Origin: an uncultured virus (IMG/VR IMGVR_UViG_3300027833_000038)
Lineage: Duplodnaviria; Heunggongvirae; Uroviricota; Caudoviricetes; Crassvirales
Strand: one strand, 5' to 3'
Length of the DNA: 64,000 bases
IMG/VR virus record: IMGVR_UViG_3300027833_000038
Shown: one piece after another, positions 2,850 through 64,000 of the stretch
Numbering within the stretch: position 1 is the first letter of the stretch
How the letters are laid out: each line of letters opens with the position of its first letter
Position numbers and translations under genes: made by a program
The notes under the pieces: generated by a model
The model's input: the letters and a program-made list of their open reading frames with translations, nothing else
Databases searched by the model: none
Told to the model about the DNA's origin: nothing

Positions 2850-3338
2850 TTAATAAGCTGAAGTTAATTTGTTTTGATTCTGTTCAAATGATTCGTCTTC
2901 CCACTCGTTCCAATCATGTCTGGTAAGTTCGTGAAAATGTCTTGAAAGGTCTTCAGCTATGCTCTGCAATTCACTATCTTCATTCCAGTCGTCAACTGTG
3001 CAGTCATTCTGAATACGTCCTAACATTCCGCCTCCTAAATAGTTTTGATAAGCTGTCATTCTCTCCCCTTCGTAACCATAAGGCTCAAGGTCAATTTCAA
3101 CACCGCCTCCACGTGTAGAAATTTTCTGTCTTAATACAATAAAACTTGAGGCGATAATTCCTCCCACGCTATCAAAAGCTGCGGGATTGGTTAGTAGTTC
3201 AAATCCTATCCGTGCAATTCCTAGCCCTACTATGGCTGTTCCTACTGATTGGATTCCTAAGATTAAATAATCTGGAGCTGTGTCTTGGTCTGCCCATTTG
3301 TTGAATAGACCTAATAATTGATTGATTGTTTTTTTCAT
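2850..3338 (-). CDS. Hypothetical protein with N-terminal hydrophobic segment; first gene of early unit
   Basis: 162 aa, directly downstream of consensus promoter. Confidence 0.7.
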   Translation of the reverse strand: MKKTINQLLGLFNKWADQDTAPDYLILGIQSVGTAIVGLGIARIGFELLTNPAAFDSVGGIIASSFIVLRQKISTRGGGVEIDLEPYGYEGERMTAYQNYLGGGMLGRIQNDCTVDDWNEDSELQSIAEDLSRHFHELTRHDWNEWEDESFEQNQNKLTSAY

Positions 3339-3369
3339 TACGTGTAAATTTAAATTGTGATTGATGTTT

Positions 3370-3812: not shown

Positions 3813-5564
3813 TTATTTAGAATTTCTGATTAAAAATTTAAGTATTTTTTTCTCTAGAATAGCCCAATCTTCTGAGTCCCTGTTCACCTTTCTATCGGTT
3901 GAAAGTTCAAACCATTTCACAGTATTACCTAGGCTTTCGCTTATCGAGTTCTGGACCATTTCTTTGGACCAATCGTCAATATTTACTTGCTTGCTGTAAA
4001 CTACTTTTTCCTGTCTTTCTAATTTGAGCACTTCAATAACCTCCTGAACGCCATCTAAACAGGACTTTTCGTCATCGGTTAGGCTTAAGCTTTTAAGCTT
4101 GTGTGTTTCACTATCATAGATTATGCAACTATAACCCATCAATCGCCCGTCCCATACGCTTGGAGCATAACAAATGTGTTCCCCGTTCCCAATAGGCTCA
4201 ACATCAAAATGCTCTAGTTTCTGGTTAAAAAACTTTAAGCTTTCAGCATCAAAATAGTTGGACGTTTCAGCGGTATTCTCTGCTATTTCATAAATGGTAA
4301 CTTGCTTGCTGTTTAATTTATTTACAAGGGCATAGCCTATTGCTTTTTGCCCTGCAAATTCTGTTATATATATATTATAATCATTGCCCTGATTTCCTCC
4401 AATGTTTAGCACCTCGTAAACGTTCCAATTTTGCGCCTCTTGTGGACTGCTAAAAGTCATTTCACAAACCATGTCAGTATTAAATGATTTTTTAAGGTGT
4501 TTTCTTAAGTCCTCTTCGCCTCTTGCTTTTGTAAGTTCGCTATGATTAATAAATACTTGCTTAGAAGCCAATACAAGCTTCTCAGTTGCTTTTTTAGGCT
4601 TGGACGGGGTTTTGTCCCCGTCTTTACCTATAATCAATTCAACGCCCTTTAGAGCCTGACTCATTGCGTAAATTACTTCTTTTTCTTGCTCTTGTAGTTT
4701 CTTAACCCAGCCGTTAATATAAGCTTGTGAATTTACCATGCTATCTTTTGGGTCTAGGTTACAAAGTCCTGTTAAGTACCAAGCGCCTATTTCGGCAACT
4801 AATTCTTCTTTGCTGTAAAGTTCATCGCCTGAGCGCTTAATATCTACTAAGCTTTTTCTTTTTAATCTGCTGCTGTGTCCCGTGCTGTGAATTAGCTCGT
4901 GAAACAAAGTTTTGTAGTAGCTGTCAATATCGAAAAACTGATTAGCATTTGGCATCTGTACGTGGTCCCGAGCTGGTACGTAATGGGCTGAGCTGCCCCC
5001 GTGCTCAAGTGTTGGGCTGTTGGGATAATTCTTGTAAATGGCTTCCGCTGTTGGAATTAATTCTATTGGCTGAACCTCTACAGGTTCCACCGTGTTTCTA
5101 GGTGTAATATTGTCGGCTTGCTCAATATTAAACACTAAGTAGTATCTTAGGCTCCAAGACTCCCTAAGTTTACCGTTGATAACGTCAGTAGGTAGATTGA
5201 AAGATTTTCTAGCCTGTGCCTGTGTTATATATTTACCTGTTTCTTTTATTTCATAACTCAATACCCAAAGGGTAACGGCTGACGCCTTTTCGCCTTTGCG
5301 AATAGCACCGCCACACTCGGAAATATTTTTGAACGTGCCCCACTCATTGGACTTGTAGCCCTTTTCTCTAGCTACTGCACTTAGTAGTTGCTTATTAATA
5401 CCGTTGTAGGCTCTACCTGTGGCGTGATTGATTGGACCGTATAAGCTACCATCCTCGTTTTTCCACGGCATGAACCATTTTAAACCGTCTTTCTTTAAGC
5501 CCTCTAGAACTAGGGTGTTAATCTTTGTAAACGCTGTTACTTTAATAGTTGAATTGTTTTTCAT
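3813..5564 (-). CDS. ardC: ArdC-family ssDNA-binding/zincin metallopeptidase with C-terminal extension
   Basis: PW...N..TGRAYNGIN...WGTF...IRKGEK; HELIHSTGH (HExxH)...YSKEELVAEIGA. Confidence 0.8.
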   Translation of the reverse strand: MKNNSTIKVTAFTKINTLVLEGLKKDGLKWFMPWKNEDGSLYGPINHATGRAYNGINKQLLSAVAREKGYKSNEWGTFKNISECGGAIRKGEKASAVTLWVLSYEIKETGKYITQAQARKSFNLPTDVINGKLRESWSLRYYLVFNIEQADNITPRNTVEPVEVQPIELIPTAEAIYKNYPNSPTLEHGGSSAHYVPARDHVQMPNANQFFDIDSYYKTLFHELIHSTGHSSRLKRKSLVDIKRSGDELYSKEELVAEIGAWYLTGLCNLDPKDSMVNSQAYINGWVKKLQEQEKEVIYAMSQALKGVELIIGKDGDKTPSKPKKATEKLVLASKQVFINHSELTKARGEEDLRKHLKKSFNTDMVCEMTFSSPQEAQNWNVYEVLNIGGNQGNDYNIYITEFAGQKAIGYALVNKLNSKQVTIYEIAENTAETSNYFDAESLKFFNQKLEHFDVEPIGNGEHICYAPSVWDGRLMGYSCIIYDSETHKLKSLSLTDDEKSCLDGVQEVIEVLKLERQEKVVYSKQVNIDDWSKEMVQNSISESLGNTVKWFELSTDRKVNRDSEDWAILEKKILKFLIRNSK

Positions 5565-5632
5565 AATACGTGTTATTTAATTAGATTGATTTGATTGAAC
5601 AGGACAAACAACGGAATTATTAACGAGACTAC

Positions 5633-6534: not shown

Positions 6535-6609
6535 ATGAAACTATTCAACTTTTTTTTAGGGTTAACCATAGGGTTATCCTTTTCTTTCGTCTTATTTTTT
6601 AACTCATGA
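6535..6609 (+). CDS. Hydrophobic micro-peptide (24 aa)
   Basis: MKLFNFFLGLTIGLSFSFVLFFNS; ATGA overlap with groEL start. Confidence 0.35.
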   Translation: MKLFNFFLGLTIGLSFSFVLFFNS

Positions 6610-12759: not shown

Positions 12760-12929
12760 CTGAACACATGAACATAACTGATTTAAAGATTTGGGGTTTA
12801 TCCTCCTTTGCTATTACAATGAACCTAATGAATGTAGACACGGCTTTAAGCCTAACTTTAACCTGTATAGCTATAGGGTACACTGTCCACAAATGGATTC
12901 TTATGTATAAACGTAATAAAAAAAAATAG
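12756..12929 (+). CDS. Small membrane protein, holin-like (57 aa)
   Basis: Own translation: hydrophobic segments plus KRNKKK tail; near endolysin. Confidence 0.55.
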   Translation: MTEHMNITDLKIWGLSSFAITMNLMNVDTALSLTLTCIAIGYTVHKWILMYKRNKKK

Positions 12930-37996: not shown

Positions 37997-38006
37997 AGAA
38001 AAACAA

Positions 38007-40502: not shown

Positions 40503-40540
40503 TATATAATCATGAGATAAAAACACAACGCTAAATTAAT

Positions 40541-40548
40541 TATCTTTG
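40541..40548 (+). promoter_or_regulatory. -7 element TATCTTTG
   Basis: 11 nt upstream of ATG 40560. Confidence 0.6.
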
Positions 40549-40559
40549 TGTAACTTATT

Positions 40560-41366: not shown

Positions 41367-41371
41367 TTATA

Positions 41372-42043
41372 ATGGCAAACACAGGAAGTAAAATATACAG
41401 AACATTAAGACTCTATAAGGATGGGGTTAGGACTGAACACGTTAAACCTAACGATTCAAGAGACCCTAATCATATTCCTCCTTTTACAGATATTGTGTCT
41501 TGTTTTACAGATGCACCTACACCTACACCTGCGCCTGTACCTACACCTACTCCTGTTCCAGTAGTAGCGCCTAACCCTACACCAGCGCCTATAACACCAA
41601 CACCTACTCCAACACCTGTCCCAGGAGTTATTGTGCTGCCACCAGCGGTAGTAGTTAAGCCTCCAGTATCACCAGCACCAGTTGGAGGAACAGGTATATT
41701 CTTGAGTAGTCCAGACAAAAATTACATTAGACTGTGTCAAAACAATTACATAATGTCTTCTCCTGCATCTATTGCTGGTAACCTTTCAACAGGATTAGAC
41801 AGAATGGTTTCTCAAAATGGACAAGCATTTGACGGAAGAGGACTCTGGTACGCAGCGACTACAGAATCCAATAGACCTACAACTCAAACTGATAATGGTT
41901 GGTACGCTATACAAATTATGCAAGATGGAACTATAGGTAATATTACTTTAGGGAAGTTGGCATGTAGAGGCGGAATGGTGGATGACGATTGGGACACGGA
42001 TGATAATGGCGATGGAGACGAAAGATTCCTTGGATTACTATAA
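41372..42043 (+). CDS. Extensin-like protein: MANTG module, (PT)n, C-terminal domain
   Basis: Pro-rich tract about 41513-41680. Confidence 0.8.
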   Translation: MANTGSKIYRTLRLYKDGVRTEHVKPNDSRDPNHIPPFTDIVSCFTDAPTPTPAPVPTPTPVPVVAPNPTPAPITPTPTPTPVPGVIVLPPAVVVKPPVSPAPVGGTGIFLSSPDKNYIRLCQNNYIMSSPASIAGNLSTGLDRMVSQNGQAFDGRGLWYAATTESNRPTTQTDNGWYAIQIMQDGTIGNITLGKLACRGGMVDDDWDTDDNGDGDERFLGLL

Positions 42044-42055
42044 AATATAAAGAAA

Positions 42056-42202
42056 ATGGCATATACAGGATTGAGATATTATACTAAATTAAGAAGGTTT
42101 GTTAATGGCAAACCTACTAAAACCGTAAAAGAAAACATCATATCTGATAATGACTACATTAAGCCATTTAAAGATGAAAATTCATGCCCTAAAGGAGCGT
42201 AA
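42056..42202 (+). CDS. Stand-alone MANTG-type module (48 aa)
   Basis: Own translation [53 protein letters not shown] coupled. Confidence 0.75.
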
Positions 42203-52233: not shown

Positions 52234-52790
52234 CTTTAGTAGGCGCAGGAGTAGGACTTTTAGCAGGAGGAGCGCAAGCAGTCTCTGGTGCAGTTCGTTC
52301 TAAAAGAGCAAAAAGAGATTTAGAAAATTACGAAAGACAAGAGGTTACCGACTTGGCAGACAACTTGCGTGTATCTACCCTAGGGGCAGAGCAGCAACAA
52401 GAAGGTCTTGCTCAAAGCGAGTCTACAGCAATAGAAGCCTTACAATCTTCTGGAGCTCGTGGAGTTATAGGGGGTGTTTCTAAAGTTCAGAAGAACAGAG
52501 CTCAAGCTGAACAAGGAATTGCAGCAGGATTAGACCAGCAAATGACTAATATACAGCAAATACAATATCAAGATAAGGTAAGACAGTTTAACACTACCGA
52601 AGGCAGACAAAACCAAGAAATAGCTGGAATGGCTGCTGAGATGCAGGCAGGAAGAGCTGCTGTACAGAACGGGCTAGGAACAATGGCTGGTGCTGTTACT
52701 TCTGGAGCTTCGTCTTATGCTTCAGCAGCAGGAGTTAAAGGAGCAGCCAAGCCGTTTACGGGAGGTAACACACTTTTTAAAGATTCATAA
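52212..52790 (+). CDS. Internal virion/ejection protein (small)
   Basis: Gly/Ala-rich hydrophobic N-terminus, Gln-rich helices. Confidence 0.65.
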   Translation: MAAATTVALVGAGVGLLAGGAQAVSGAVRSKRAKRDLENYERQEVTDLADNLRVSTLGAEQQQEGLAQSESTAIEALQSSGARGVIGGVSKVQKNRAQAEQGIAAGLDQQMTNIQQIQYQDKVRQFNTTEGRQNQEIAGMAAEMQAGRAAVQNGLGTMAGAVTSGASSYASAAGVKGAAKPFTGGNTLFKDS

Positions 52791-52799
52791 ACAATAATT

Positions 52800-54224
52800 A
52801 TGGCAAAAGGAGCATACTATGCAGGAATGGCTACAGCGCCTCAAGTAAAGCCAGCGGATTTTTTAACTCCACTGACAAACATGTTTGAGAGGCTTACCCA
52901 GCAAAGCATAAACAGGAGAAAAGAACAACAGGCTGCTGAAAAGGAAAACGCTAAGTTTTCTTTAAGTCAGCAAGGACGATTAGAGGATGTAGTTAATTCT
53001 ACTAGCTTTAAAGGTTTTGGTATAGACCAGCTTGATATGGCTTCAAAGTCATACACTGGATATGTAGACGAGAATTTTAAAAAAGCAAACGCTGATTTCA
53101 ATGCAGGTCTTATAAGTAAAAGCCAGTTAAGCTCTATTACTGCTAACCTAATGAACTCATCAAGGTCAGTTCAGAATTTAGGAAACAGTATTAATGGGTT
53201 TATGCAAACAAACTCAAAGCTTGAAATGGAGGGAAAGGATTCTCACTATAACGATTTAGTTATGAGTTTTATAGGAGACCTAGGAAACAATGTAAGGTTT
53301 GACACAAATTCTTCTGGAGGCATTTCTTTAATTACAGTTGGAGAAGATGGCGTAGAAAAAAAACTTCCAGCAAATCAAATTAAAAACTTTCTACAACCTA
53401 GAGCAGCTACAGATATGGATGCAGTTTTAGAAGACATTGTTACACAATCAAAGCCAAATCAATATGATTTAGGTGGTTCTATAGGTTTTAGATATTTAGA
53501 AAATGGAAGCATAACTCAAAATCAATCAAACCAATTAACCAAAAGACTTTTAAATTTTTCTCCCGAAGAAATATACGATGCATCTGTAAGAGCAGGAATA
53601 GTGGGAGACAATGAAGGTCAAATTAATGTGTTAACTGATTTTGCAAATGAAGGAGAAATAACAGAAGCAAATCTCGATTCAATGAGACAAAGGCTTGGAC
53701 TTTATGCTGCCGAAAGTTTAACTGAAAAATTCCAAAATGCAGAGTCTAATGTAGCTAAAAAGGTATCAGTTACAAAGCCCACTTCTTATGCTAATTTTGA
53801 TAACAATACAGGAACGTATTCTTACAAAAAAGGAGCACAAACTTCTGTTTTAATTCGGTCTGGATTTACAGGAAATGATATGGTAAATGATTCTCCTACG
53901 GGAAAGACAAACGATGTTCCTCCAAATTCTTATGTTTCTGACGTTAGACTAACTCCTTATGGTTTAGAAGTATGGGGTGTTCAGATAGTAAACAAAAAAA
54001 CTGGAAACATTATGGATTTAATGAATGCTTCTAGTCTTTCTGATTTAGAGGTAGAATCTGCTGGAGGAACTAGAAAAAACTTTCACAAAGTAATAGACCC
54101 TAATAGCAATGGAGTGGCTATTTCTCAATTACAAAGAGTATTTGGATTTAGCACCGATGACTATAAAAACACCTTAGATTTAGATATTACAACAGCACCC
54201 CCTAAAGGGAAATACGACAAATAG
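52800..54224 (+). CDS. Internal virion/ejection protein
   Basis: Position in ejection triad. Confidence 0.55.
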   Translation: MAKGAYYAGMATAPQVKPADFLTPLTNMFERLTQQSINRRKEQQAAEKENAKFSLSQQGRLEDVVNSTSFKGFGIDQLDMASKSYTGYVDENFKKANADFNAGLISKSQLSSITANLMNSSRSVQNLGNSINGFMQTNSKLEMEGKDSHYNDLVMSFIGDLGNNVRFDTNSSGGISLITVGEDGVEKKLPANQIKNFLQPRAATDMDAVLEDIVTQSKPNQYDLGGSIGFRYLENGSITQNQSNQLTKRLLNFSPEEIYDASVRAGIVGDNEGQINVLTDFANEGEITEANLDSMRQRLGLYAAESLTEKFQNAESNVAKKVSVTKPTSYANFDNNTGTYSYKKGAQTSVLIRSGFTGNDMVNDSPTGKTNDVPPNSYVSDVRLTPYGLEVWGVQIVNKKTGNIMDLMNASSLSDLEVESAGGTRKNFHKVIDPNSNGVAISQLQRVFGFSTDDYKNTLDLDITTAPPKGKYDK

Positions 54225-54225
54225 T

Positions 54226-57200
54226 ATGGATAATGTTGAAGAGTTATATAACGGTCTGATAGAAGACGGAAGTCTAACAGCAGAAAATACTTCTTTAGAA
54301 AAATTTAGAGTAGACTTACAAGATGAGGGGTATGCTGAAGAGCTATATAATGGACTTTATGACTCTAAGGATTACACTTTAGATTACGGTAGTTTTGTTG
54401 AGACTTATTCTACACCAAAAAACATAGACCCTCTTGATACTAAAGCCGATACTGGAGATAAGCCTAATATAATGTTGCAGGATTTCTCTTTATCTGATGA
54501 ACTTTTTAATGATAGTGAGGAAGTTAAGTCTCAGTTTAGAACTTTTTATAACTGGCAAGGTAAACTTGAAGTTGAAGAGGATAAAGATGGTCAGTTTTTA
54601 AAAGGAGCCTTTGGCGAGTTTATCAACATGATGCCTATGGGCGATTGGATTGACGACCAAGCTAGAGCTTTTAGTTCTGGAAGGGAAGATGTTGATGTGC
54701 AGGAAACTGGAAATGAAATAATGAATCAGCATTTTGCAGGAAACAAAATAAGCGTTGACCAAGCAAACGAAATGCTTAAACAGCTATATGAAAGTCAAAG
54801 TACTCCTCGCTCTCAGGAAGTTGAAAACTTTGAAAATATTTTGGTTGAAAATGGTATGGACGGTTTTGCTGCTGTAAAAGCTATATATGAAGAGCCTAGC
54901 GCTGCAATGGAATATGTTACTCGAAGCATATCATCCATGATTAACTGGGATAATGCTGGAGTTGCGGCAGCTACTATGGGCACTATGACTGCTGGAGGTG
55001 CAATGATAGGGGGTCCTGTTGGAGCTTTATCTGGATTTTTAACATCAATACCTGCTGCTATGGCTGCTGCTGGAGCCAATACCGATATGGGTATGTCTTA
55101 CGCTAATTTTTTTGCAGAAGAACTTGGAGAAGACTATACTAGAGAAGATTTAAAAGCTCTTATAGAAGACCAAGACAGAATGGATAACATAGAGAACAAG
55201 GCGTTAGCTAGAGGTGTTTCGATTGCTGCTGTTTCAGCTTTTACAGCAGGCATAGGGGCTAATGTAGCTGCTAATGTTTTTAGAAACGGAAGAAGAGGTA
55301 TTAGAGCAAGTGCAGAAGCTTTTGCTAGAGTAACTCCTTTATCTATGGCTGGCGGAGCTACTGGAGAAGCTTTAGCTCAAACTACTTCAGGTCAAGATTT
55401 TAGCGGAGCAGAGGTTGTTTTAGAGGGACTTTTAGACCCTATCGGAAGCATTGGAACTACTATAGGTGGTTTTGGACAAGCTATAGCTTCTGCACCATCT
55501 TACAAAATAAACGGAGGTGGTACTACAAAAGCAGAGTTCATTAGGAGATTTAATTCAATGACTGACGAGCAAGCTAAAAGAGCTTCGTTTGAAGTAAACA
55601 ATGATGAGGACACTTTCAGCGTAATAGATGACAGGTTAGGTTCTTTAAAAGTTAGAGAAGAAATTAAAAAAGTCTATGGAGACATGGACGAAGAGCAAAT
55701 AACAAGATTAAGTAGCTTAGAAGCAGAAAAGAAAAAAGTTTCAAAGCTTAATTCTGAGACAGCTAAAAAAAGAGCAGCAGAAATAAACCAGGAAATTGAT
55801 GAGGTTGTAAACATTTATAAAACAAAAAGAGATGTTATTGGTGTTTTATCTGCTCCTTATTATGATTTAAATATAACGAGTGTTGAGGATGCTCAATCTA
55901 AAAGAAAAACTAAAGAATACAAGTCATACATAAACAAGGCTAAAAGATTAGCTGAAACAATGAACCTAACGGTTTCAGATGTAAACGATGGCATTGGAGG
56001 TTACTTCCTAGATGATGGAACCTATCTTCAGGAATTATCTTCAGAGGTTTATTTAGAAGGCGCTACCTATGAGCAAGCTATCGAATATGCTTCTATTTTA
56101 GGAGCTATAACTCCTGAAACTCAAGAAAGCACTATAGCAGGTATGATAGTGGGTCCTGGAGAGGGAGATGCAGGTAAATTTACTTTTGCAATAGAAGATA
56201 ATAGTGTACTAGAAGACGTTAGAAGTGCTCTTGATGAGCTTAAAATTGAGTATTCAATGAATACTGATACAGGGGAGATAGGAATTATTGACTTTTCTAA
56301 TGGAGATGATGTTGAACTTAACGAAAAACTTGGTATCTTTGTAGAGGTACTGGAAAAAAACCAAATAAATCATGAGCAAAAATCTGAGAGAATCCGTTCA
56401 AAGTATATTGGCGCAAAAGACAGGGCTGACAACTTACAACAAATTAAAGAATCTTCCGATAAGTACGGAAAGAATGGGGAAAGCATTCGTTACATCGCCG
56501 AAAAAGCAGAGCAAAGGAACGAAGAATACTTAGGAAATAAGACTCCTCCTCCTCCTGAAGAAACTCCAAGCCTAGAGCCAGTAGTTGTAAGAACTAATGT
56601 CAGAAAAATATATGACGCTTTAGGACAAAAGAAAGCCATCAAAAAAGTAAGAAGGTTTTTCTTAGAAACTTTTTATAGCGGTGGCGGATTAGATTCTAAA
56701 TCCGAAGAAATAATAAGAGCCTTTAGAAGAAAAGGAACTGCAACGCAAAATTTCTTAAAAACAGAGTCAGCTATATTTGAGGCTCAATTTGAGTTGGACA
56801 CAAAAAAAATGTCTACTTCAGATGCTATGCTTTACAAGACAGCAATAAACGACTATCTATCAGGAAAAACAGACATTGAACTTTCTCCAGAAATGAAACC
56901 AGTTCTTGATGAGATGCGTTCACAGATTGACCAAAGAACAAACATACTGTTAGGATTGCTAAAGGAAAAGGGTAGACCTGGACCTGAGCTTGACCAGTTA
57001 ATAGAAACTTTAGAAAACAACAAAGGTTCTTATTTACATAGAGCATATTCTGCTTTTAAAGATTTAAGCTACATGGAAGAGCTTCTTTCTGACCCATCAA
57101 TGGCTCGTTCTGAAATAAATGAAACTTATGATTTGCTAGTTGCTGAGACAGCAATGGACCAAGGAATTACTGTTGATGAAGCAAAAGATTTAGTTGACCA

Positions 57201-59700
57201 ATATATTGCGGACACCTTTAGTTCCCCAGACAGAGGAACTCATATAGCATCTTTGGCTGATGGAAAAATATCTTCTCCATTTTTAAAAAAGAAAAATAAA
57301 AATCTTTCTGATACTTTTAGAAAATTCTTAGGGGAAATAGATGACCCTTTATTTAATTATGTAAACACAATTGAGAAAGTTTCTGGATATGTTGCTTCTG
57401 TTGAATACCAATCAAAGCTTTCAGATTTTTTAAAAGAAAGTGGTATTGCTACAACCAAACCTAACAGAGACTCGGGAAGAACAAATCAACTTCAACTAGG
57501 AGCAAAAGGTCTTAATGTATTAGATAAGCTTTACGTGGACCTAGACTTTATAGAAGCTTTTGAATCAATTCAAAGACTAGCTCCTATTGAGGGCTCTTTA
57601 AAATATTTAGTTGCAGCTCAAGGAATAACTAAATATGGTAAAACAATTTTGTCTCCTACTACAACGGCAAGAAACTACATTTCAGGTTCTTTAATAACCC
57701 TGATGAATGGAGAAAACATATTAAATCCAGCAAATTGGAAAAAGGCTTCTAGAGCAGCTAAGTTAGCTTGGAACAGTCCTAAGAATCCTAAAGAAATTAA
57801 AGCCGAAGTACAAAGACTTATAGAACATGGAGTCTTACAGGATGGAGGTAGAGCTCAGGAGGTAATGATGATTCTTAATGATATATATGCACTAGAATCA
57901 AAAAGAAGAACAGACGGTTTAAGCACTGAGGGAATGAGAAAGTTTAATGATGCCGTGACTAAGATATATCAGTTCGGAGATGATTACTTTAAAACATTTG
58001 CTTTTTATGAAAAGAGAGATGCCTTTATGAGAGAGGGTATGTCTCTTGAAGAAGCCGAAGAAATAGCTGCCTACAGAGTAAGAAAAGGTCAACCAACTTA
58101 CTCCGAGCTTCCAAAAAACATGAGGAGCTTGAGAAGATTTCCCCTTACAGGAACGTTTGTTTCATTCCCTTATTTAATTACAAAAGCACATAAAGAAAAC
58201 TTAATGTTTATTGCTGAAGATTTTAAAGCAGGAAGAACAAAAATGGCTGCAAAAAGTTTAGCTAATTATGCTGCATCTGTCGCTATACCATACGGAATTG
58301 CTGAGGGAATGAAATCGGCACTTGGAGTTTCTGACGAAGAGGATAAAGCTTTGAAAGACATGGCTCCAAAATATTATAAAGATGCGCAGTTTATATATAC
58401 ATCAAAAGACGAAGAGACCAACGAGTTAACTTATTTTGATGTAAACTCAATAGCACCTTCAGCTCAAATAGTACAGGGATTAACTATATTGGCTCAAGAC
58501 AGACATGGAAGAAATCTTTCAGACAAAATAGGAGAGTCAGTTATGTCTCAATTAAAGCCATACGTTAGTTTAGATTTATTAGTAAATACTGGAACTGCTG
58601 TTATGTCTGGTAAAGACCCTAACAGTGGTAAAAATATTGGAGAAGATACTTACGACAGATTAAAGTGGGGTGTAAATAACATATCTCCTGGAGTAGTAAG
58701 AAATTTAGCGAACATAGCACGTTCTCAAGGATGGTTCGAGTTAGATGAAATAAATAAATTTACAGGAAAGAAATATACTTTAGAAGATGAACTTGCAGCA
58801 TTGCTTGGTCTTAGGTTTCAAACAACAAACTGGAATTTACAACTTCAGAGCTACGCAAAAGGTCAAAGCATTGATTTTGCTAATGATGTTAAAGGTCAGC
58901 TCAGAGACGTAAAATCACAACAAAAAATTCCACTACAAGAGGTTAGTATGATTGTTTCTGATATGTACGAAAAAGATGCAGAGTACAGTGGTAATTTATT
59001 ACATCAAATTGAAGTAGCTAGAAAACAAAATTTAACTGAATCTGAAATAGTTGACGCTTTGTCTGCTGCTGGAATAAGAGCTAATGATATAAACTCACTA
59101 ATGAAGGGAGAGTTTATGGAGCTTAAAGGAATAGGAACTGAAGTATACAAGAAAGAGATAGAATCTTTAAGCAGTAGACCAGACCTAGCCGACAACATGA
59201 AAAGAAATTTAGATACTTATCAGTATTTAGTTGGAGAAAGAAATGCTGACGGTAGAGCAAAAACTGACTTATATAAGCTATATGTTTCTGGAGCTGATGA
59301 TACAGTTGTTTTAGATAGAATCAAAAAAGCTTCTAAAAACATTTACAAAAGAAGTAAAACTCAAATAGGTTTTGATGAAAATGCGTTTACTCAAAAAGAT
59401 ATTGCTGATGCGGAAAATGTCTCTGTAAAAAGATATTTTAATATATACAAAGGATATAAAACTTTAGGTGAGAGTCCTAAACTTAGCAACCTTCCCATAA
59501 GCGCTAAAGCTACTATTGATATGATTTATGAAAAAGACCCTGAAATACAGTCGTTTTTATTTCATAAATTTTTAGATGGAAAAACTGATGATAAATCTAT
59601 AAACGGCTTAAACACATTGTACAAGTCTATAACAGGAAAAAATATGTCTAAGACAGTTCTTGAGTTACTTGTGTATAGAATCAAACAGGATAAAAAATAA
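54226..59700 (+). CDS. Large internal virion/ejection protein (1824 aa)
   Basis: Size, Gly/Ala hydrophobic segments, last gene of virion block. Confidence 0.65.
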   Translation: MDNVEELYNGLIEDGSLTAENTSLEKFRVDLQDEGYAEELYNGLYDSKDYTLDYGSFVETYSTPKNIDPLDTKADTGDKPNIMLQDFSLSDELFNDSEEVKSQFRTFYNWQGKLEVEEDKDGQFLKGAFGEFINMMPMGDWIDDQARAFSSGREDVDVQETGNEIMNQHFAGNKISVDQANEMLKQLYESQSTPRSQEVENFENILVENGMDGFAAVKAIYEEPSAAMEYVTRSISSMINWDNAGVAAATMGTMTAGGAMIGGPVGALSGFLTSIPAAMAAAGANTDMGMSYANFFAEELGEDYTREDLKALIEDQDRMDNIENKALARGVSIAAVSAFTAGIGANVAANVFRNGRRGIRASAEAFARVTPLSMAGGATGEALAQTTSGQDFSGAEVVLEGLLDPIGSIGTTIGGFGQAIASAPSYKINGGGTTKAEFIRRFNSMTDEQAKRASFEVNNDEDTFSVIDDRLGSLKVREEIKKVYGDMDEEQITRLSSLEAEKKKVSKLNSETAKKRAAEINQEIDEVVNIYKTKRDVIGVLSAPYYDLNITSVEDAQSKRKTKEYKSYINKAKRLAETMNLTVSDVNDGIGGYFLDDGTYLQELSSEVYLEGATYEQAIEYASILGAITPETQESTIAGMIVGPGEGDAGKFTFAIEDNSVLEDVRSALDELKIEYSMNTDTGEIGIIDFSNGDDVELNEKLGIFVEVLEKNQINHEQKSERIRSKYIGAKDRADNLQQIKESSDKYGKNGESIRYIAEKAEQRNEEYLGNKTPPPPEETPSLEPVVVRTNVRKIYDALGQKKAIKKVRRFFLETFYSGGGLDSKSEEIIRAFRRKGTATQNFLKTESAIFEAQFELDTKKMSTSDAMLYKTAINDYLSGKTDIELSPEMKPVLDEMRSQIDQRTNILLGLLKEKGRPGPELDQLIETLENNKGSYLHRAYSAFKDLSYMEELLSDPSMARSEINETYDLLVAETAMDQGITVDEAKDLVDQYIADTFSSPDRGTHIASLADGKISSPFLKKKNKNLSDTFRKFLGEIDDPLFNYVNTIEKVSGYVASVEYQSKLSDFLKESGIATTKPNRDSGRTNQLQLGAKGLNVLDKLYVDLDFIEAFESIQRLAPIEGSLKYLVAAQGITKYGKTILSPTTTARNYISGSLITLMNGENILNPANWKKASRAAKLAWNSPKNPKEIKAEVQRLIEHGVLQDGGRAQEVMMILNDIYALESKRRTDGLSTEGMRKFNDAVTKIYQFGDDYFKTFAFYEKRDAFMREGMSLEEAEEIAAYRVRKGQPTYSELPKNMRSLRRFPLTGTFVSFPYLITKAHKENLMFIAEDFKAGRTKMAAKSLANYAASVAIPYGIAEGMKSALGVSDEEDKALKDMAPKYYKDAQFIYTSKDEETNELTYFDVNSIAPSAQIVQGLTILAQDRHGRNLSDKIGESVMSQLKPYVSLDLLVNTGTAVMSGKDPNSGKNIGEDTYDRLKWGVNNISPGVVRNLANIARSQGWFELDEINKFTGKKYTLEDELAALLGLRFQTTNWNLQLQSYAKGQSIDFANDVKGQLRDVKSQQKIPLQEVSMIVSDMYEKDAEYSGNLLHQIEVARKQNLTESEIVDALSAAGIRANDINSLMKGEFMELKGIGTEVYKKEIESLSSRPDLADNMKRNLDTYQYLVGERNADGRAKTDLYKLYVSGADDTVVLDRIKKASKNIYKRSKTQIGFDENAFTQKDIADAENVSVKRYFNIYKGYKTLGESPKLSNLPISAKATIDMIYEKDPEIQSFLFHKFLDGKTDDKSINGLNTLYKSITGKNMSKTVLELLVYRIKQDKK

Positions 59701-59733
59701 AAAAGCCTCACGGTGTTACGAATGAGGCTTTTT
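59697..59733. terminator. Bidirectional intrinsic terminator
   Basis: AAAAAGCCTCA-12nt-TGAGGCTTTTT between convergent units. Confidence 0.8.
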
Positions 59734-59785
59734 ACACGTAATGAAAAAAATTAATAAAGGTTTATTAAAGTTCCACTTGTCAATC
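59697..59785 (-). ncRNA. Candidate trans-acting antisense sRNA (~90 nt)
   Basis: TAGTTTTG -7 at 59797-59790; ends at terminator; contains 20-nt complement of start region of gene 2850-3338. Confidence 0.5.
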
Positions 59786-59794
59786 AATACAAAA

Positions 59795-60247
59795 CTACAA
59801 CTTATTTTTGATTAATTCTACAGTCTTGTCACAATCTTTTTGATTTCTTGGCATATATAGGTCTGCATGTATTTCACTATCATGCAAAAACTTCTTAAAC
59901 AACTTCCATCTTAAAGGAAAAGCTTCGTTTGGATTGCCCTTTGTTTCTATTATATATCTGGGAGGATACTCTTTGTCTACAAAATCTGGCGTATACTTAA
60001 TTGGTAGTATTTTTTTATTTCCCCTATTGTTTAATTCTTTCTGAGCTTTTGTCTTTTCATAAGAAATATTGTCTGAAAAAAACCCGTCCACAACAACATA
60101 AGTTTGACCTTCATACACAAAAGGTATTTTAGCTTTCTTAAGGGCTCTGTACATATATAATTCAAGTTTACTAGCAAACGACACCCCATCCTCGGTAACC
60201 TTCTTAGACCTCGTTATTTGCCTTTTACCCTTCTTTCTTTTAATCAT
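59795..60247 (-). CDS. PD-(D/E)XK endonuclease (T7 endonuclease I/DUF1064-like resolvase)
   Basis: FASKLE, YTPDF, IIETKG. Confidence 0.8.
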   Translation of the reverse strand: MIKRKKGKRQITRSKKVTEDGVSFASKLELYMYRALKKAKIPFVYEGQTYVVVDGFFSDNISYEKTKAQKELNNRGNKKILPIKYTPDFVDKEYPPRYIIETKGNPNEAFPLRWKLFKKFLHDSEIHADLYMPRNQKDCDKTVELIKNKL

Positions 60248-60686
60248 CTACATCTTCTATTTTATGTACAACAAAACCAAGCATTGTAAACTCTTCATGA
60301 GCTTTTTCTTTGCTCTGGCTATACAGTGTAGCCTCGTGATAAATTAACTCTTTGTTTTGATTAAACGTTTTTGTGGTTACAATGTACTTACGATATCCAT
60401 CTATATCATTCCAGTACAACATTTCCCTTAAATCATTAGCAAATCCTGGAAAGTTTCCACAACACCAAAGAGCCTCTTCATTTGTGCACTCAAGTATTTT
60501 AGCTAATGCAAAAACTGATTCTTCTGGATATCTTATAATTTCTACTGCACCATCTGAAGCGTCTAATTCTACATAGAAAAAATGCTGTTGCAAGTCAAAG
60601 CCTTGAGCCATCATTTCCTCCACATACTCTTTAATTATTTCTTTCTCCCAATCATCGGGACTTCTACTATATAGCAATCTAGACAT
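60240..60686 (-). CDS. Hypothetical protein
   Basis: 148 aa; TATATTTG at 60699-60692 directly upstream. Confidence 0.65.
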   Translation of the reverse strand: MSRLLYSRSPDDWEKEIIKEYVEEMMAQGFDLQQHFFYVELDASDGAVEIIRYPEESVFALAKILECTNEEALWCCGNFPGFANDLREMLYWNDIDGYRKYIVTTKTFNQNKELIYHEATLYSQSKEKAHEEFTMLGFVVHKIEDVDD

Positions 60687-60717
60687 AATACCAAATATAC
60701 AAAATACAAGTATTATG

Positions 60718-61113
60718 TTAGTGTAGGCAACTCTTAAGTTTCTCTATATTATGTTTGTCTGCTATCTGAATAAGAAACTCTTTAACTGACGCTTCATGGT
60801 TATGAGTTTTTGACTTCCTATAGATACTTGTTGTGCTGCAATTAATCATATTAATTATTTCAGAAGCATTCGTATTGTGCTCACAGTAAGCTACCCAACA
60901 GGGTCCATTAGTCTTTTCCCAAGAATCAGCTATTCTTTCAAACAAAAGTTTTTGACCTATAGGAACTGCAACACCTTTCTTTTTTACCTCAAAGATTATA
61001 AGATATTTATTATCAAATTCAAGCAAAGCATCTAGGTCGCTAGGATGTATTTTTTCATTCCCAACTCCGCTAAAGTCTATAACCTGACTGATTCTGTTTT
61101 TATATTTTATCAA
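60718..61113 (-). CDS. PD-(D/E)XK-like protein (likely TTG start)
   Basis: PSDLDALLE...IIFEVK...GQK; TTGA overlap with upstream stop. Confidence 0.55.
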   Translation of the reverse strand: MIKYKNRISQVIDFSGVGNEKIHPSDLDALLEFDNKYLIIFEVKKKGVAVPIGQKLLFERIADSWEKTNGPCWVAYCEHNTNASEIINMINCSTTSIYRKSKTHNHEASVKEFLIQIADKHNIEKLKSCLH

Positions 61114-62270
61114 AATGTGTGAGTTAATCTTGCAATCTGACCAAATTCGCTGTGATGTAAAAATCCTTCTATAGCTCTTGGAGAATGTTGGTATCCTTTT
61201 ATATGATGCCAACTGTCTGAAGAACTTGGAGACCTTAAGGATTCTAAAGTTACACCTGCGTAATCTTTTGAAGTCTTGTGGTGTACATGATGCGTATAAA
61301 TGTATCTGTGCTTTGTGTCAGCCCACATATTTTTAGCCTCTGTAGCCATCAAAAGAGGTAAATCATTGTTCTTTGCACCATCTCCGTGAGTGGTTCCTAT
61401 GAGGTTGTTGTTCCACTGATAATATTTTCTATGAGCAATACTATTATCAAACGTTATATTCTTACAGTCCTTGTACCAAGACTCTATGTTGTGAGCTAAG
61501 AAAAAACCATTTGTGTAATCATGGTTCGACGGGTTAAAAACAAAATGAACGTCTGCTTCAAGCAGCAATCTATCTATGACAGTGATATACATTTCTTTTG
61601 CTTTTAGAAAGTTGTCGTACCACATTCCGTCTGTATCTTGACTGGTTCCTTTTCTTGTTTTTCTATCAGGAGTGTCAATATGAAGAACATCATTACCTGC
61701 AACAAATAATATTTTTTCTACATGAAAACCTTTAACCTTTTCAAGTATACCTGCAACGCCTTCATGTACTCTTTTGATGGCTATCTCCGTGTTATACTCT
61801 TCCCCCGTTTCATACGCTCTCGCAAGCTTCCCCACATGAATGTCAGCAGGGTCAACAACAAGAAGATGACGGTCTTCACTTTTTTCTTTATTTCTTTTAA
61901 TTTCATATTTAAATGTATGTTTTTTTACAGAGTCGATATGGTCTTTTAACATGTCCTCAAACTTTGGACCTTTGTCGCTAGGAGAAAATGATATTGACCA
62001 GTTTTTACCCTTGTACCATGCCATTCTTATATCTTCAGGAGCAATACCTACTGTCTTTGCTTCCTCGTAAAGAGCAGGATTCTCTTCAGCAAGAATATTT
62101 TTTTGTATTTTTTTAGACAAATTTCTTCTAGCTGATTCTATTGTAAGTCCTTCTGGATTTCCTAATTCATCCAAAACCTTTCTAGCTATTTCGGTTTTAT
62201 TCATGCCCTGCTTGTTCTTAGGAAAGTGCTTTTTTGCTCTTTCTAAGAAATCGTTCCAATCAATATTCAT
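61110..62270 (-). CDS. Calcineurin-like metallophosphoesterase with N-terminal HTH-like region
   Basis: DIHVG, GND..H, SNHD, HGD, HHVHH. Confidence 0.8.
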   Translation of the reverse strand: MNIDWNDFLERAKKHFPKNKQGMNKTEIARKVLDELGNPEGLTIESARRNLSKKIQKNILAEENPALYEEAKTVGIAPEDIRMAWYKGKNWSISFSPSDKGPKFEDMLKDHIDSVKKHTFKYEIKRNKEKSEDRHLLVVDPADIHVGKLARAYETGEEYNTEIAIKRVHEGVAGILEKVKGFHVEKILFVAGNDVLHIDTPDRKTRKGTSQDTDGMWYDNFLKAKEMYITVIDRLLLEADVHFVFNPSNHDYTNGFFLAHNIESWYKDCKNITFDNSIAHRKYYQWNNNLIGTTHGDGAKNNDLPLLMATEAKNMWADTKHRYIYTHHVHHKTSKDYAGVTLESLRSPSSSDSWHHIKGYQHSPRAIEGFLHHSEFGQIARLTHTF

Positions 62271-62439
62271 TGTTTTCGTGTATTAGGTTACTAAGGCGCT
62301 CGACTGATATAAGAAGTTTGCGGACTCCCACCCTTGCCTCTTCATTGTTTACATCTAGTAAACCTTCACAAGCATTTGCAACGTTGTTGTGGATTTCTTC
62401 ACAAAAATCTACAATGTATTTTTCCCTTGGTGTTAACAT
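62260..62439 (-). CDS. Small hypothetical protein (59 aa)
   Basis: Own translation MLTPREKYIVDFCEE...HENNEY fills the gap in the operon. Confidence 0.6.
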   Translation of the reverse strand: MLTPREKYIVDFCEEIHNNVANACEGLLDVNNEEARVGVRKLLISVERLSNLIHENNEY

Positions 62440-62444
62440 TTATT

Positions 62445-62735
62445 TTAATCATCGTCCTGAAAAATAAGGAATGTTTCCCCCAGTTTTTTGTCAAGTCTTT
62501 TAATACCTCTGTAAATAATTCTAGACTTTACCATGATTTTTTTCTTATCATGTACAGTGTGGTCTACGTCAAGTTCTCCGTGCAATGTGTGGTCAAAAAG
62601 TAAAAGCCTATCTATTTTTTGTGTAATAGAAAGAGATTTCCTTGATAACACATTTTCAATGATATCATTTAAGCTGTCTTTTGATGCGTTCATCTTTAAC
62701 GCTTTTCTCTGTTTAGCTGTTGGTTCCACATGCAT
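62445..62735 (-). CDS. Hypothetical protein
   Basis: 96-aa ORF. Confidence 0.6.
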   Translation of the reverse strand: MHVEPTAKQRKALKMNASKDSLNDIIENVLSRKSLSITQKIDRLLLFDHTLHGELDVDHTVHDKKKIMVKSRIIYRGIKRLDKKLGETFLIFQDDD

Positions 62736-62767
62736 CTCACATAAAGTTAAAGTTAATTATTGACAAT

Positions 62768-63013
62768 TTACGATTTAATTTGATATTTTTCTCTGAGCTT
62801 CACGTAAATGTCCCATATTTTTTGTTGAGCCTCACAGTTTTCGTAGGTTTCTGGAGACACAGTTGAGCGTTTTTTTACACAAATTTCTAAACGAACTCCA
62901 GTAGGAGTAGGAAATGGTTTAACAAATATTTTATTTCTCATACACCAAAGCATAGAGTCATAATGTTCTTTTGTTGTATTAATATCGCAGGGTACCTTCC
63001 TTTGTCTTGGCAT
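62768..63013 (-). CDS. Hypothetical protein
   Basis: 81 aa; TAATG coupling to helicase. Confidence 0.6.
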   Translation of the reverse strand: MPRQRKVPCDINTTKEHYDSMLWCMRNKIFVKPFPTPTGVRLEICVKKRSTVSPETYENCEAQQKIWDIYVKLREKYQIKS

Positions 63014-63999
63014 TAAAACAAATCTAAATCATCTTCTTTATCTTCTTTCCAAGGGTTTGAACCTTGAGGTATAGTTGCGTATGGATTTTTAGATTCAAAG
63101 GGTTCTGAATAATATTCTTTTGAAATCATGCTTTGAGTATTTACTTTTTTGCCTACTGCATAATATCTTCCGCTAGGCAAATCATATCTAAACACTTCCT
63201 CTTCCAGGGTGTCTCCCTGAAATTTCATTTTTTGTTTTAACGACTTAACAACAACATCGTCTTTTCGGTAATCCATGTAATCTTTAAAGTATCTATAAAC
63301 TAGAAGTCCATCATGGCAAACGTTTTTAAAATCAGCACTACCACTAACGCTATATAAATCTGGTTGTTTGTAGTATCCTAAGTCATCCTTTTGCATCTTT
63401 GTTGGGTGTGCTACTAGAAATATCATTACATCGTTTTGCTGTGCAAAATTAGTAAGCTTTGTTAGGGTTGTTCTTATTTCAGCAAGCTCACTTTTATTGC
63501 CTCCCATTTCAACTTTATTAAAAGCATCTATAACAAAAATATCAACTCCATAAGAATAAACCTGCTCTTTAAATGTTTCTAAAAGCCATTTCCATGTAGG
63601 TCTTTTGTCCTCTTCAGGATAAGTTATATATATTTTTTCTTTTGACCACTCAATGTAATCTTTGATATCATCCTTTGAAACTTTTGGTCTGTCGTTGTTT
63701 TCCATGAAAAAATTCTTTCCCATAACTTTTTCAATAAAAGTGGATTGATGCAAAGCCATTGGATGATGCTCAGGAGAATAAAAAGAAGCTTTCATTTTGT
63801 AGTCTTGAAGTAAATTTAAAACATACCATTCAACAAAATTTGATTTACCGTGAGAGGGTATTCCTGTAATGACAGTTAAATGTCCTCTCATTGTCGAAAA
63901 AGCACCCTTAAGCTCTCCAAAAGCATAGTTCTTTGGATATATTGTCTTAGGCTTACCGTGTGCATGAAGCTTATAAATGTCATCAGCAATGTCTTCTGC
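63013..63999 (-). CDS. Primase-helicase, SF4 helicase domain (partial; frame open to window end)
   Basis: VITGIPSHGKS Walker A, FVIDAFN, LVAHPTK, SVSGSADF. Confidence 0.9.
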   Translation of the reverse strand, partial: AEDIADDIYKLHAHGKPKTIYPKNYAFGELKGAFSTMRGHLTVITGIPSHGKSNFVEWYVLNLLQDYKMKASFYSPEHHPMALHQSTFIEKVMGKNFFMENNDRPKVSKDDIKDYIEWSKEKIYITYPEEDKRPTWKWLLETFKEQVYSYGVDIFVIDAFNKVEMGGNKSELAEIRTTLTKLTNFAQQNDVMIFLVAHPTKMQKDDLGYYKQPDLYSVSGSADFKNVCHDGLLVYRYFKDYMDYRKDDVVVKSLKQKMKFQGDTLEEEVFRYDLPSGRYYAVGKKVNTQSMISKEYYSEPFESKNPYATIPQGSNPWKEDKEDDLDLF

Positions 64000-64000
64000 T

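Follow-up and report, generated by a model that had tools for sequence, protein, structure and literature searches.

A probable trans-acting antisense RNA or 3′UTR complementary to a distant start codon in a marine Bacteroidota phage

The locus between two convergent genes

The stretch of DNA analyzed here (the window, 64,000 nucleotides) comes from a marine phage of Bacteroidota with a genome of ~69 kb. Its closest cultured relatives, of the Pervagoviridae type and Flavobacterium podophages, are Cellulophaga phage phi38:1 (Pervagoviridae) and the Flavobacterium phages vB_FspP_elemo, all with Flavobacteriia hosts; amino-acid identity to them is 43.9% for the DUF1064 protein and 42.8% for TerL. 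The label “crAss-like” rests only on a weak muzzle-domain match (PF25731, 5.4e-11), and the DFDxD polymerase motif was not found in the six largest ORFs. The locus of interest sits between convergent genes; its overlap with coding sequence is limited to the final codons of the late gene on one side and the DUF1064 stop codon on the other. The DUF1064 gene closes the minus-strand replication block, and the candidate RNA would lie in or just after its 3′UTR. The features are:

59795..60247, minus strand: DUF1064 / resolvase-like gene (PF06356, 9.3e-07; phrog_190, 1.9e-09)
59797-59790, minus strand: orphan -7 promoter box TAGTTTTG (TAnnTTTG), overlapping the TAG stop of the DUF1064 ORF
59780..59788, minus strand: 5′ segment of the candidate RNA, predicted to pair with +14..+22 of gene 2850-3338
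59751..59768, minus strand: hairpin 1, a predicted fold with an 8-bp stem and a 2-nt loop, between the two pairing segments
59731..59750, minus strand: putative seed, the complement of a 20-mer, directly 5′ of the terminator
59692..59733, both strands: two-way intrinsic terminator with a 6-bp G+C stem, a 12-nt loop and U runs
59741..59815, plus strand: 24-codon ORF whose start coincides with the plus-strand motif copy; not considered a gene

The first-pass annotation had proposed a minus-strand RNA that runs from a -7 element to a terminator. The element TAGTTTTG is present at 59797-59790 on the minus strand as claimed, and it matches the TAnnTTTG of the Bacteroidota primary sigma factor. Such sites are about three times as dense in intergenic DNA (2.21 vs 0.74 per kb per strand). 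For nine of the 13 intergenic sites in the window, a called gene lies no more than 80 nt downstream; the box at 59790..59797 has no downstream gene and is thus an orphan, with homologous orphans in the related genomes G003 and G004. In 17 of 20 related sequences the box at the same place is perfect, though it lies beyond the stop codon. A -33 element (TTTG) was not present within ~20–30 nt upstream of the box on the minus strand. PMC7366714 gives TAnnTTTG as the -7 consensus of Bacteroidota, describes Shine-Dalgarno sequences as absent, and likewise reports no -33 TTTG in Flavobacterium johnsoniae.

At the other end, the terminator claimed for the minus-strand RNA is a hairpin at 59705-59728 with T/A runs on both sides. 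Its stem arms (59705-59710 and 59723-59728) are extended by A-U pairs, and its U tail is longer on the minus strand (U6-A-U6) than on the plus strand (U5). The loop of 12 nt exceeds the short-loop range of 3–8 nt, and a consensus terminator scan of 59300-60300 returned nothing because its loop limit was 8 nt. Promoter and terminator, ~90 nt apart, delimit a non-coding unit of their own. Between them, the internal hairpin TTAATAAA/TTTATTAA is found at 59751-59768, and the seed is mostly unpaired in centroid folds, and therefore predicted to be accessible. The terminator loop was also considered as a pairing partner, but its word occurs on either strand of the window at the frequency of chance only (2 found vs 1.85 expected). 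No Rfam family matched anywhere in the window; at the locus the best score, to BTnc231, was 16.8 bits (E 0.77), below the gathering cut-off of 80.4.

We also searched sequencing runs for the surrounding region. At least half of the sampled words of 56000-63999 were present in 18 DNA entries, and fractions of 0.19 and 0.12 in two RNA entries from one sample. The RNA contigs cover parts of 45.2–53.6 kb and 59.8–62.7 kb, including 59776-60466. None covers 59700-59775 in these two metatranscriptome runs, whose contigs give neither strand nor ends.

Complementarity to gene starts

The plus-strand sequence of the seed had been reported as identical to the start region of a gene at the other side of the window. 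The regions concerned are:

3329..3348, minus strand: main putative target, an exact 20-mer spanning -10..+10 at the translation start of gene 2850-3338
3317..3325, minus strand: second putative target site, codons 5–8 of gene 2850-3338, a 9-nt match
2850..3338, minus strand: gene for a 162-aa protein, family unassigned, first gene after an 80-nt gap
5557..5573, minus strand: weaker putative target at the ArdC-like gene start, pairing over 7 + 8 nt interrupted by a 2-nt bulge
3813..5564, minus strand: gene for an ArdC-N + zincin metallopeptidase (PF08401, 8.7e-20; PF18818, 6.9e-30; phrog_7245, 3.7e-59)

A renewed search of the window recovered exact copies of the 20-mer at 59731-59750 (plus) and 3329-3348 (minus). 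The minus-strand copy spans -10 to +10 of the ATG of gene 2850-3338, so that the 20-nt pairing across the AUG is available as claimed. The target start lies 56,382 nt from the locus, and a cis-antisense RNA of the sar or OOP type was rejected on account of this distance. A third, imperfect copy with 3 mismatches occurs at 12906-12925 and there are no further matches in the window; shuffle controls gave a mean of 0.04 matches, and three were reached in 0 of 100. The 20-mer pair is the longest of the window's 65 inverted repeats (37 nt at 78%). With k=18, three of 116 repeated words come from the pair and the other 113 from coding repeats at 37152-44589; with k=20, it is one of 82 repeated words. 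Outside the coding-repeat block it is the sole repeat of at least 18 nt in the window. A repeat of at least 20 nt of any kind arose in 1 of 100 order-3 Markov sequences, and shuffled seeds reached a 20-nt complement to the start region in 0 of 300 and 0 of 200 trials. The complementarity to the start of gene 2850-3338 is thus beyond chance. A GenBank phage DNA search with both loci gave no match, and a gapped seed-plus-loop pattern found 36 loci in viral contigs, of which one is related (the G003 record) and the rest are attributable to chance.

The product of gene 2850-3338 has no match in Pfam or PHROG. A homologue was present in one of five related genomes searched (G003, 61% identity), and a pattern scan of viral contigs yielded no relatives. 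The 80-nt gap in front of the gene carries its own -7 box (3370-3377). Like the other putative target starts of the candidate RNA, its start region is unstructured (-2.5 kcal/mol fold), and the predicted energy of the duplex with the seed is -23.7 kcal/mol.

A second pairing had been proposed with the start of the ArdC-like gene, the first gene of the leftward block. This match is real at 5573-5557 on the minus strand, including the 2-nt bulge, but the order of the paired stretches is 7 + 8 and not 8 + 7. Its duplex energy of -14.4 kcal/mol is no better than that of four control starts in the window (-13.1 to -16.5 kcal/mol). In the RNA-RNA duplex check, the start of gene 2850-3338 stood out whereas the ArdC start fell within the control range; the ranking is noisy, as long loops were allowed, and it singled out only the main target of the window. 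Since the ArdC pairing in the window is at control level, the proposal that the starts of both early units are targeted draws mainly on relatives, in which ArdC is the best target. As far as can be read from the sequence, the target of the seed is a start-codon motif common to several operon-first genes, which the first-pass annotation had missed.

A second pairing segment had also been overlooked. The 5′ segment of the putative RNA matches early codons of the best target of each clade in co-linear order, over 9 nt in the window (16 of 5000 shuffles), 10 nt in G003 (1 of 5000) and 9 nt in G004 (16 of 5000). An RNA started at the promoter would hold only part of this second site, because the site begins 2 nt after the -7 box.

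Conservation, covariation and alternative explanations

We compared the locus with that of the relative L073. The neighboring DUF1064 gene is identical at 385 of 453 positions, with 100 of 151 third codon positions alike (66%), and the late gene on the other side matches at 166 of 291 letters. L073 has the same seed except for differences in homopolymer length, 20 of the 21 nt after the -7 box are unchanged, and the 12-nt loop is kept; purifying selection on the seed is supported by this comparison of sequences. The hairpins changed in a different manner. Hairpin 1 is replaced in L073 by another hairpin, hairpins of unrelated sequence occupy the same place in L073 and L003/L004, and the L073 terminator stem is altered by one compensatory pair. 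Between clades the terminator stem covaries and its loop is nearly invariant. G.U pairs in the L073 hairpin and the L003 terminator, together with two invariant pairs of the G005 clade, can form only on the minus strand, which is that of DUF1064. Folds of four relatives all reproduced the tail, hairpin, open seed and terminator, with z-scores of -2.7 to -4.4. Thus, the minus-strand anatomy of -7 box, hairpin, seed and terminator was borne out and is kept in relatives. In phi38:1, the DUF1064 gene lies in mid-operon with the next gene following immediately and with neither terminator nor orphan promoter, which indicates that the RNA locus is special to the subgroup of the window.

Seed and target also appear to change together between clades. 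In G003 one 9-mer occurs five times: four copies adjoin the start codons (ATG) of genes that lead operons, ArdC among them, and the remaining copy is antisense and lies at the candidate RNA locus. The letters flanking the shared core differ from those of the window in seed and targets alike, and cognate pairs reach 12 nt, or 14 nt with the G of AUG as G.U (8 of 300 shuffles). In G005 the first leftward gene has a leader with which the locus can form a different 21-nt pairing, containing 1 mismatch and 1 U.G (3 of 300 shuffles); this start entered the test only after the pairing had been noticed. The best target differs by clade, being gene 2850-3338 in the window and ArdC in G003 and G004. The covariation that had been suggested as a check is apparent in G003 and G005, but in G004, G001 and G002 comparable pairing was common in shuffles, which equaled the wobble-aware score in 111, 116 and 55 of 200 cases, respectively. 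In the wobble-aware ranking of G003 the top start belongs to another gene, with the motif genes ranked 2, 3 and 5. The pairings in relatives are individually marginal and the sequence is A+T-rich; as G003 and G004 are sister genomes, the independent clades number only three. What we observed is the sequence match, the anatomy, their conservation and an apparent joint variation of seed and target among clades.

Two explanations other than a base-pairing RNA deserve weighing, and we regard each as unlikely. According to one, the motif is a protein site, bound by a DNA operator-binding repressor or a RegA-like RNA-binding repressor, and the terminator-side copy is one more such site. The motif is found at several gene starts, where its spacing from the -7 box varies (in G003 between 11 and 31 nt), and is thus a regulon-like element. 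ACACGT-like words are also found at 5702-5710 in the divergent region and in terminator loops of the L002/L077 clade, and a protein co-evolving with its site would also change all copies together. However, the motif is tied to the ATG rather than to the promoter. In RNA, the locus copy occurs only as antisense, upstream of the minus-strand terminator, and the plus-strand copy comes after the terminator stem. A protein site fails to predict the co-linear second match, the G.U-compatible differences, the orphan promoter and the hairpin, and we identified no candidate regulator. The divergent region itself (5690-6130) folds no better than shuffles (z +0.48).

The other, similarly improbable, holds that an inverted partial copy of a gene start was left at a module boundary by a duplication or a gene conversion event, in a 3′UTR that serves termination only. 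Such a relic should decay, yet the seed and the 5′ segment are kept where third codon positions are 66% identical, and 17 of 20 sequences retain the orphan -7 box. Since the best target differs by clade, repeated conversions at one spot would be needed. What speaks for a relic is that the locus, read as its reverse complement, runs co-linear with the target start and first codons, with a hairpin inserted between them, as the footprint of an inverted duplication would be; phage genomes are also mosaic, and the adjoining late gene is completely different in L073 (166/291).

The remaining three explanations are far less credible still. The plus-strand copy would be a working start if read-through of the late operon, plausible given the short plus-strand U run (5 U), led to translation of the 24-codon ORF 59741-59815; the motif, ATG and open frame are all present in the window, but the frame in L073 gives an unrelated peptide, the ATG is absent in G003, G004 and L076, and the plus strand has no -7 box upstream, all of which makes this reading very hard to sustain. 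Equally remote is the idea that the 20-mers, located at the head and just past the tail of the minus-strand block, are inverted recombination sites that could flip this block of ~13 kb, which extends from gene 2850-3338 to DUF1064: neither copy was seen to have a recombinase nearby, the repeat is only 11–12 nt in relatives and occurs there at four or more sites, and the DNA contig of run X3 is unbroken over 52789-64000, with none of the seven joints listed touching 59731-59750. Finally, a chance match in A+T-rich DNA is scarcely believable. In its favor, start-region matches of 10–14 nt are common in shuffles (means 9–11, maximum 16), and the 9-mer core, with one mismatch allowed, occurs in the window about as often as expected (15 found vs 13.8 expected). 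Against it, none of 300 shuffles and one of 100 Markov windows reached 20 nt, and chance leaves the L073 conservation and the second-site matches unexplained.

Proposed mechanism and comparison with known systems

We therefore return to the base-pairing RNA. With moderate confidence, we consider the minus-strand locus to be a probable trans-acting antisense RNA or 3′UTR. The minus strand of 59692-59797 would encode a structured RNA of ~90 nt. This could be an sRNA with a start of its own at the orphan -7 box, which overlaps the DUF1064 stop codon, or else the 3′-terminal part of the DUF1064 operon mRNA, and either form would end at the common terminator. Its two single-stranded segments, with the small hairpin between them, could pair antiparallel and co-linear with the mRNA of gene 2850-3338, over 20 nt at -10..+10 and up to 9 nt at +14..+22, and the seed would pair more weakly with other genes that have the same start-codon motif, such as ArdC. 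On leaders without Shine-Dalgarno sequences, pairing at the start codon would block ribosome binding and shut off translation, and it might also trigger mRNA decay. We infer the synthesis of the candidate RNA, its timing and repression by pairing from these features.

A broader reading is more doubtful. The phage may possess its own riboregulatory regulon, in which several operon-first genes including ArdC share the start-codon motif and one anti-motif RNA from the 3′ terminus of the replication operon, with a target-specific second arm, acts on them and co-evolves with them between clades. Such a system would be the RNA equivalent of T4 RegA and would time early shut-off in hosts without Hfq or Shine-Dalgarno sequences. 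Bacteroidota hosts translate without Shine-Dalgarno sequences and lack Hfq. To our knowledge, phage base-pairing RNAs that act on the phage's own genes are known mainly from temperate coliphages, and almost nothing is known of such RNAs in Bacteroidota phages. If real, the candidate would be a small and experimentally tractable example of how phages of an abundant marine group time gene expression after transcription. Compensatory tests could draw on naturally occurring seed and target variants in three clades, and the RNA would provide a clue to what limits anti-restriction (ArdC) expression once the phage has entered. Gene-start annotation in related genomes can also benefit from the start-codon motif.

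An RNA of this kind was not found described in the parts of the literature on crAss-like or Flavobacteriia phages available to us; long non-coding RNAs at other positions of the phi14:2 genome are described in the preprint on that phage. The nearest parallel in Bacteroidota is GibS of Bacteroides thetaiotaomicron, described as having long seeds that pair over start codons without Hfq (PMC7366714). GibS and the candidate RNA are alike in the TAnnTTTG -7 element, in the lack of Shine-Dalgarno sequences and Hfq and in being A+U-rich, and the two long single-stranded seed regions of GibS, R1 and R2, repress over start codons as proposed here; GibS differs in being chromosomal, about twice as long and with its seed at the 5′ end (PMC7366714). 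The candidate RNA, in turn, is phage-encoded, lies at an operon 3′ end and would have the phage's own genes as targets. No sequence or Rfam relation between GibS and the locus was found.

Three further systems share parts of this design. The c4 RNA of phages P1 and P7 is an antisense RNA that acts in trans, pairing through two short segments with the ribosome-binding region of a phage mRNA. It is processed from the transcript of its own target in the immunity region of temperate phages, whereas the candidate lies 56 kb from its putative target, would address a family of starts and belongs to another phage group. MicL and DapZ of enterobacteria are sRNAs derived from 3′UTRs that have an internal promoter and use the terminator of the mRNA in common with it. 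Similarly, the promoter of the candidate lies in or at the end of the upstream gene and its seed right before the terminator hairpin; RNAs of the MicL/DapZ type depend on Hfq and have host genes as targets, and the candidate is a prediction from sequence. Finally, the RegA protein of T4 is a repressor that recognizes a loose RNA motif and blocks many earlier phage mRNAs at their start regions. The logic of shut-off by a later product would be the same here, with a base-pairing RNA as the proposed effector in place of a protein.

Layout of the phage genome and of the candidate RNA locus

Most of a phage genome, ~69 kb in full, lies in the window. Its structural block lies on the plus strand (6606–59700), with terminase, portal, muzzle-domain protein and tail-fibre protein genes, and is flanked by two minus-strand blocks. 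The block at 1–5564 begins with an ArdC-N/metallopeptidase gene (ArdC), and the one at 59795–64000 contains primase/helicase, exonuclease and a DUF1064 resolvase-like gene. Since complete related records are 68.8–69.3 kb long with direct terminal repeats, the two minus-strand blocks probably form a single block when the map is closed into a circle. Among cultured phages, the closest relatives are the vB_FspP_elemo group of Flavobacterium phages (TerL 42.8% identity) and, in the Pervagoviridae, Cellulophaga phage phi38:1 (DUF1064 43.9%); the label 'crAss-like' has one weak muzzle-domain match as its sole basis. The public sequencing runs containing the phage DNA are marine.

A 1-kb divergent control region (5565–6605) has a G+C-richer, ORF-poor middle part; it folded no better than shuffles and gave no Rfam or tRNA matches. 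A small hydrophobic ORF of ~23 codons (6535–6606, plus strand), overlooked by length-based ORF calling, opens the rightward block ahead of a GroEL-like gene and is kept in the related genomes G003 and G004. At 36900–44700, a run of large ORFs shows G+C raised to 0.40–0.45 as well as dozens of imperfect repeats, with periods of 6, 12 and 18 nt, common to adjacent genes; these may encode repeat-rich tail or fibre proteins diversifying by recombination.

The first-pass annotation had proposed a minus-strand RNA, reaching from a -7 box behind DUF1064 to a terminator, that would pair across the start codon of gene 2850–3338 (minus strand) and also with the ArdC start. Every element of this description was found at the locus and at the targets. 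The 20-mer is exact at 59731–59750 (plus strand) and 3348–3329 (minus strand), where it runs from -10 to +10 relative to the ATG that opens ORF 2850–3338; as many matches were seen in 0 of 100 shuffles. The ArdC start pairs as 7 + 8 letters with a 2-nt bulge between. The window's longest inverted repeat has the 20-mer at its core, and outside the coding repeats (37.1–44.6 kb) the 20-mer is the only repeat of at least 18 nt; any 20-nt repeat occurred in 1 of 100 order-3 Markov sequences. The two convergent genes end in stop codons at 59700 and 59795, with 94 nt between them.

Elements of the candidate RNA locus, in the order of the minus strand
59797–59790, minus strand: -7 box TAGTTTTG, the first element, containing TAG, the DUF1064 stop codon
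After the -7 box, minus strand: conserved segment of ~12 nt
59768–59751, minus strand, after the conserved segment: 8-bp hairpin 1
59750–59731, minus strand, after hairpin 1: seed of 20 nt
After the seed, minus strand: terminator hairpin with a 6-bp G+C stem and a 12-nt loop, then U6-A-U6

On the plus strand, the U run past the terminator hairpin is U5 only. A consensus terminator scan missed this hairpin because loops longer than 8 nt were disallowed, and Rfam gave no match at the locus.

PMC7366714 gives TAnnTTTG as the -7 consensus for the Bacteroidota primary sigma factor. Its intergenic density in this phage is ~3 times the overall density; among the 13 intergenic copies, 9 are followed within 80 nt by a called gene, and one more precedes a small uncalled ORF. 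The copy at 59797–59790 is an orphan with no gene to serve, and a homologous orphan is present in G003 and G004. At late promoters the ATG lies 3–5 nt past the -7 box, which suggests that transcripts start 4–6 nt downstream of the box. Many -7 boxes are found 3–13 nt before an ATG (window 40541, 51052 and 60692; homologous sites in G003–G005), at 51052 and 60692 with the ATG 4–5 nt away. This short spacing suggests leaderless or near-leaderless mRNAs for late and replication genes.

Conservation of the locus in related phages

DUF1064 homologues were gathered at 16 loci in viral contigs and at 80 loci in metagenome contigs. A convergent ending with a terminator was shared by 19 of the collected loci, so that 20 sequences including the window were compared. 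A perfect TAnnTTTG lies on the stop codon in 17 of the 20, although four of its letters fall beyond the coding sequence; the other three, which differ by one change, are a single lineage. In phi38:1 and in relatives further away, DUF1064 is followed immediately by another gene and such a -7 box is absent.

The most informative relative is locus L073. Its DUF1064 gene is 85% identical to that of the window in DNA and 66% at third codon positions, and the seed of L073 is that of the window except for the lengths of the U and A runs. In loci L071 and L072, one seed change was seen. L073 has one difference in the 21 nt after the -7 box, an identical terminator loop, and one compensatory pair in the terminator stem. 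Hairpin 1 is replaced by a different hairpin, containing a G.U pair possible only on the minus (DUF1064) strand. Loci L003, L004 and L076 have again a different hairpin 1 and a terminator with a U.G pair on the DUF1064 strand, and two invariant G.U pairs on that strand are found in the terminator of the clade of genome G005. The layout is the same in all four folded sequences, with z-scores of -2.7 to -4.4. In these comparisons, the features follow the pattern of a structured RNA transcribed from the minus strand, its seed under constraint.

The 12-nt terminator loop (59711–59722) is near-invariant over three clades, with a covarying stem (L003, L004, L005, L006, L073, L081–L083). One word in the loop is similar to the start-codon motif in its sense form; a search of the window gave no partner for it. 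Another clade (L001, L002, L074, L077–L080) has a different terminator ~90–130 nt after the DUF1064 stop, with a CACGTG palindrome in the loop. As the segment before this terminator has its complement at gene starts in different reading frames, it is conserved at the nucleotide level; the pairing statistics of this clade were not significant. Among the variants listed, single-base insertions at window positions 59698 and 59768 are strain variants in two DNA runs, both outside the seed.

Pairing with gene starts and alternative explanations

The best explanation, in which we place moderate confidence, is an antisense RNA from the minus strand, which may stand alone or form the 3′ end of the replication operon mRNA. 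It would occlude the start region of 2850–3338 and, more weakly, other motif-bearing gene starts. The target leaders are unstructured and without Shine-Dalgarno sequences. According to PMC7366714, an sRNA with long A+U-rich seeds in the host phylum represses by pairing across start codons, Hfq-free. Expression later than that of ArdC, which we only infer, would be consistent with the site behind the replication genes and the host-type promoter.

In G003, the local seed complement has a central 9-mer that was found five times. Four copies directly adjoin the ATG of operon-first genes (ArdC, the 2850–3338 homologue, the hydrophobic ORF opening the rightward block and a gene upstream of DUF1064), and the remaining copy, in antisense, belongs to the RNA locus. 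That this is a protein-binding motif with one extra copy at the locus seems unlikely to us. As the distance of the 9-mer from the -7 box varies (11, 22, 22 and 31 nt), the motif belongs to the start codon and not to the promoter. In the window, the shared core is followed by other letters than in G003, at gene starts (3347, 5575) and in the seed alike. Cognate pairing continues past the shared 7-nt core, reaching 20 nt in the window; in G003 it reaches 12 nt (14 with the G of AUG to U), and crossed seed and target combinations of the two gave no extension past it. At the G005 locus, a different conserved single-stranded segment is enclosed by a helix covarying among four sequences; its match to the leader of the first leftward gene spans 21 nt, including one mismatch and one U.G, and two other starts in that block are matched over 12–14 nt. 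As far as sequence can tell, the target of the antisense RNA is a motif, not a single gene. Several operons in the phage group have first genes marked by a TTTACAC-type core immediately ahead of the ATG (window 3347, 5575, 6526–6537; G003 7652, 11158, 12081, 66324; G004 1893, 2818, 56945), a feature that could aid gene-start calling.

Between the -7 box and hairpin 1 lies a segment complementary to the opening codons of the best seed target, and the order of the two arms is as expected of one antiparallel interaction with hairpin 1 bulged out. This second arm covers 9 nt at +14..+22 of 2850–3338 in the window (16/5000 shuffles), 10 nt at +9..+18 of ArdC in G003 (1/5000) and 9 nt in G004 (16/5000). 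Thus, the best target differs among clades, both arms following. Such a co-linear match is also exactly the footprint of an inverted partial duplication, but a relic of this kind, which we consider improbable, would leave unexplained the seed constraint, the orphan promoter and the clade-to-clade switch in best target. A mini-ORF on the plus strand, a site of inversion and chance are each very improbable. For the antisense RNA, the point of origin matters to the second arm, which in the window begins 2 nt after the -7 box: with starts 4–6 nt past the box, a promoter-made RNA would retain only 5–7 of the 9 nt, and a read-through 3′UTR would retain all nine.

Overall, the pairing case is weaker than it first appears. 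Shuffled RNAs frequently gave 10–14-nt matches among 60–70 start regions, and the independent clades number only three. Seed complementarity is beyond doubt only in the window (0/300 and 0/200 shuffles). It is marginal in G003 (8/300), where another start outscored the motif genes, and in G005 (3/300), where the tested start was added after being noticed, and it is not significant against shuffles in G004, G001 and G002. ArdC pairing in the window was within the control range. In one marine sample, RNA contigs extend over DUF1064 as far as 59776 and leave the remainder of the locus uncovered, which is neutral either way. Marine metatranscriptome RNA contigs cover parts of 45.2–53.6 kb and 59.8–62.7 kb, with almost no cover of the 1824-aa gene at 54000–59300, and coverage by the DNA runs is complete; such a picture hints at transcription that is real and uneven, not at DNA carry-over.

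Comparison with known antisense RNAs

Phage RNAs in antisense control of phage genes are of a known kind, for example P1 c4 and P22 sar. The parts of the literature searched held no description of an RNA like the one proposed here. If it is real, the host group, the position at the 3′ end of an operon and the two-arm design would be new, and above all the common start-codon motif, which puts several operon heads under one RNA.
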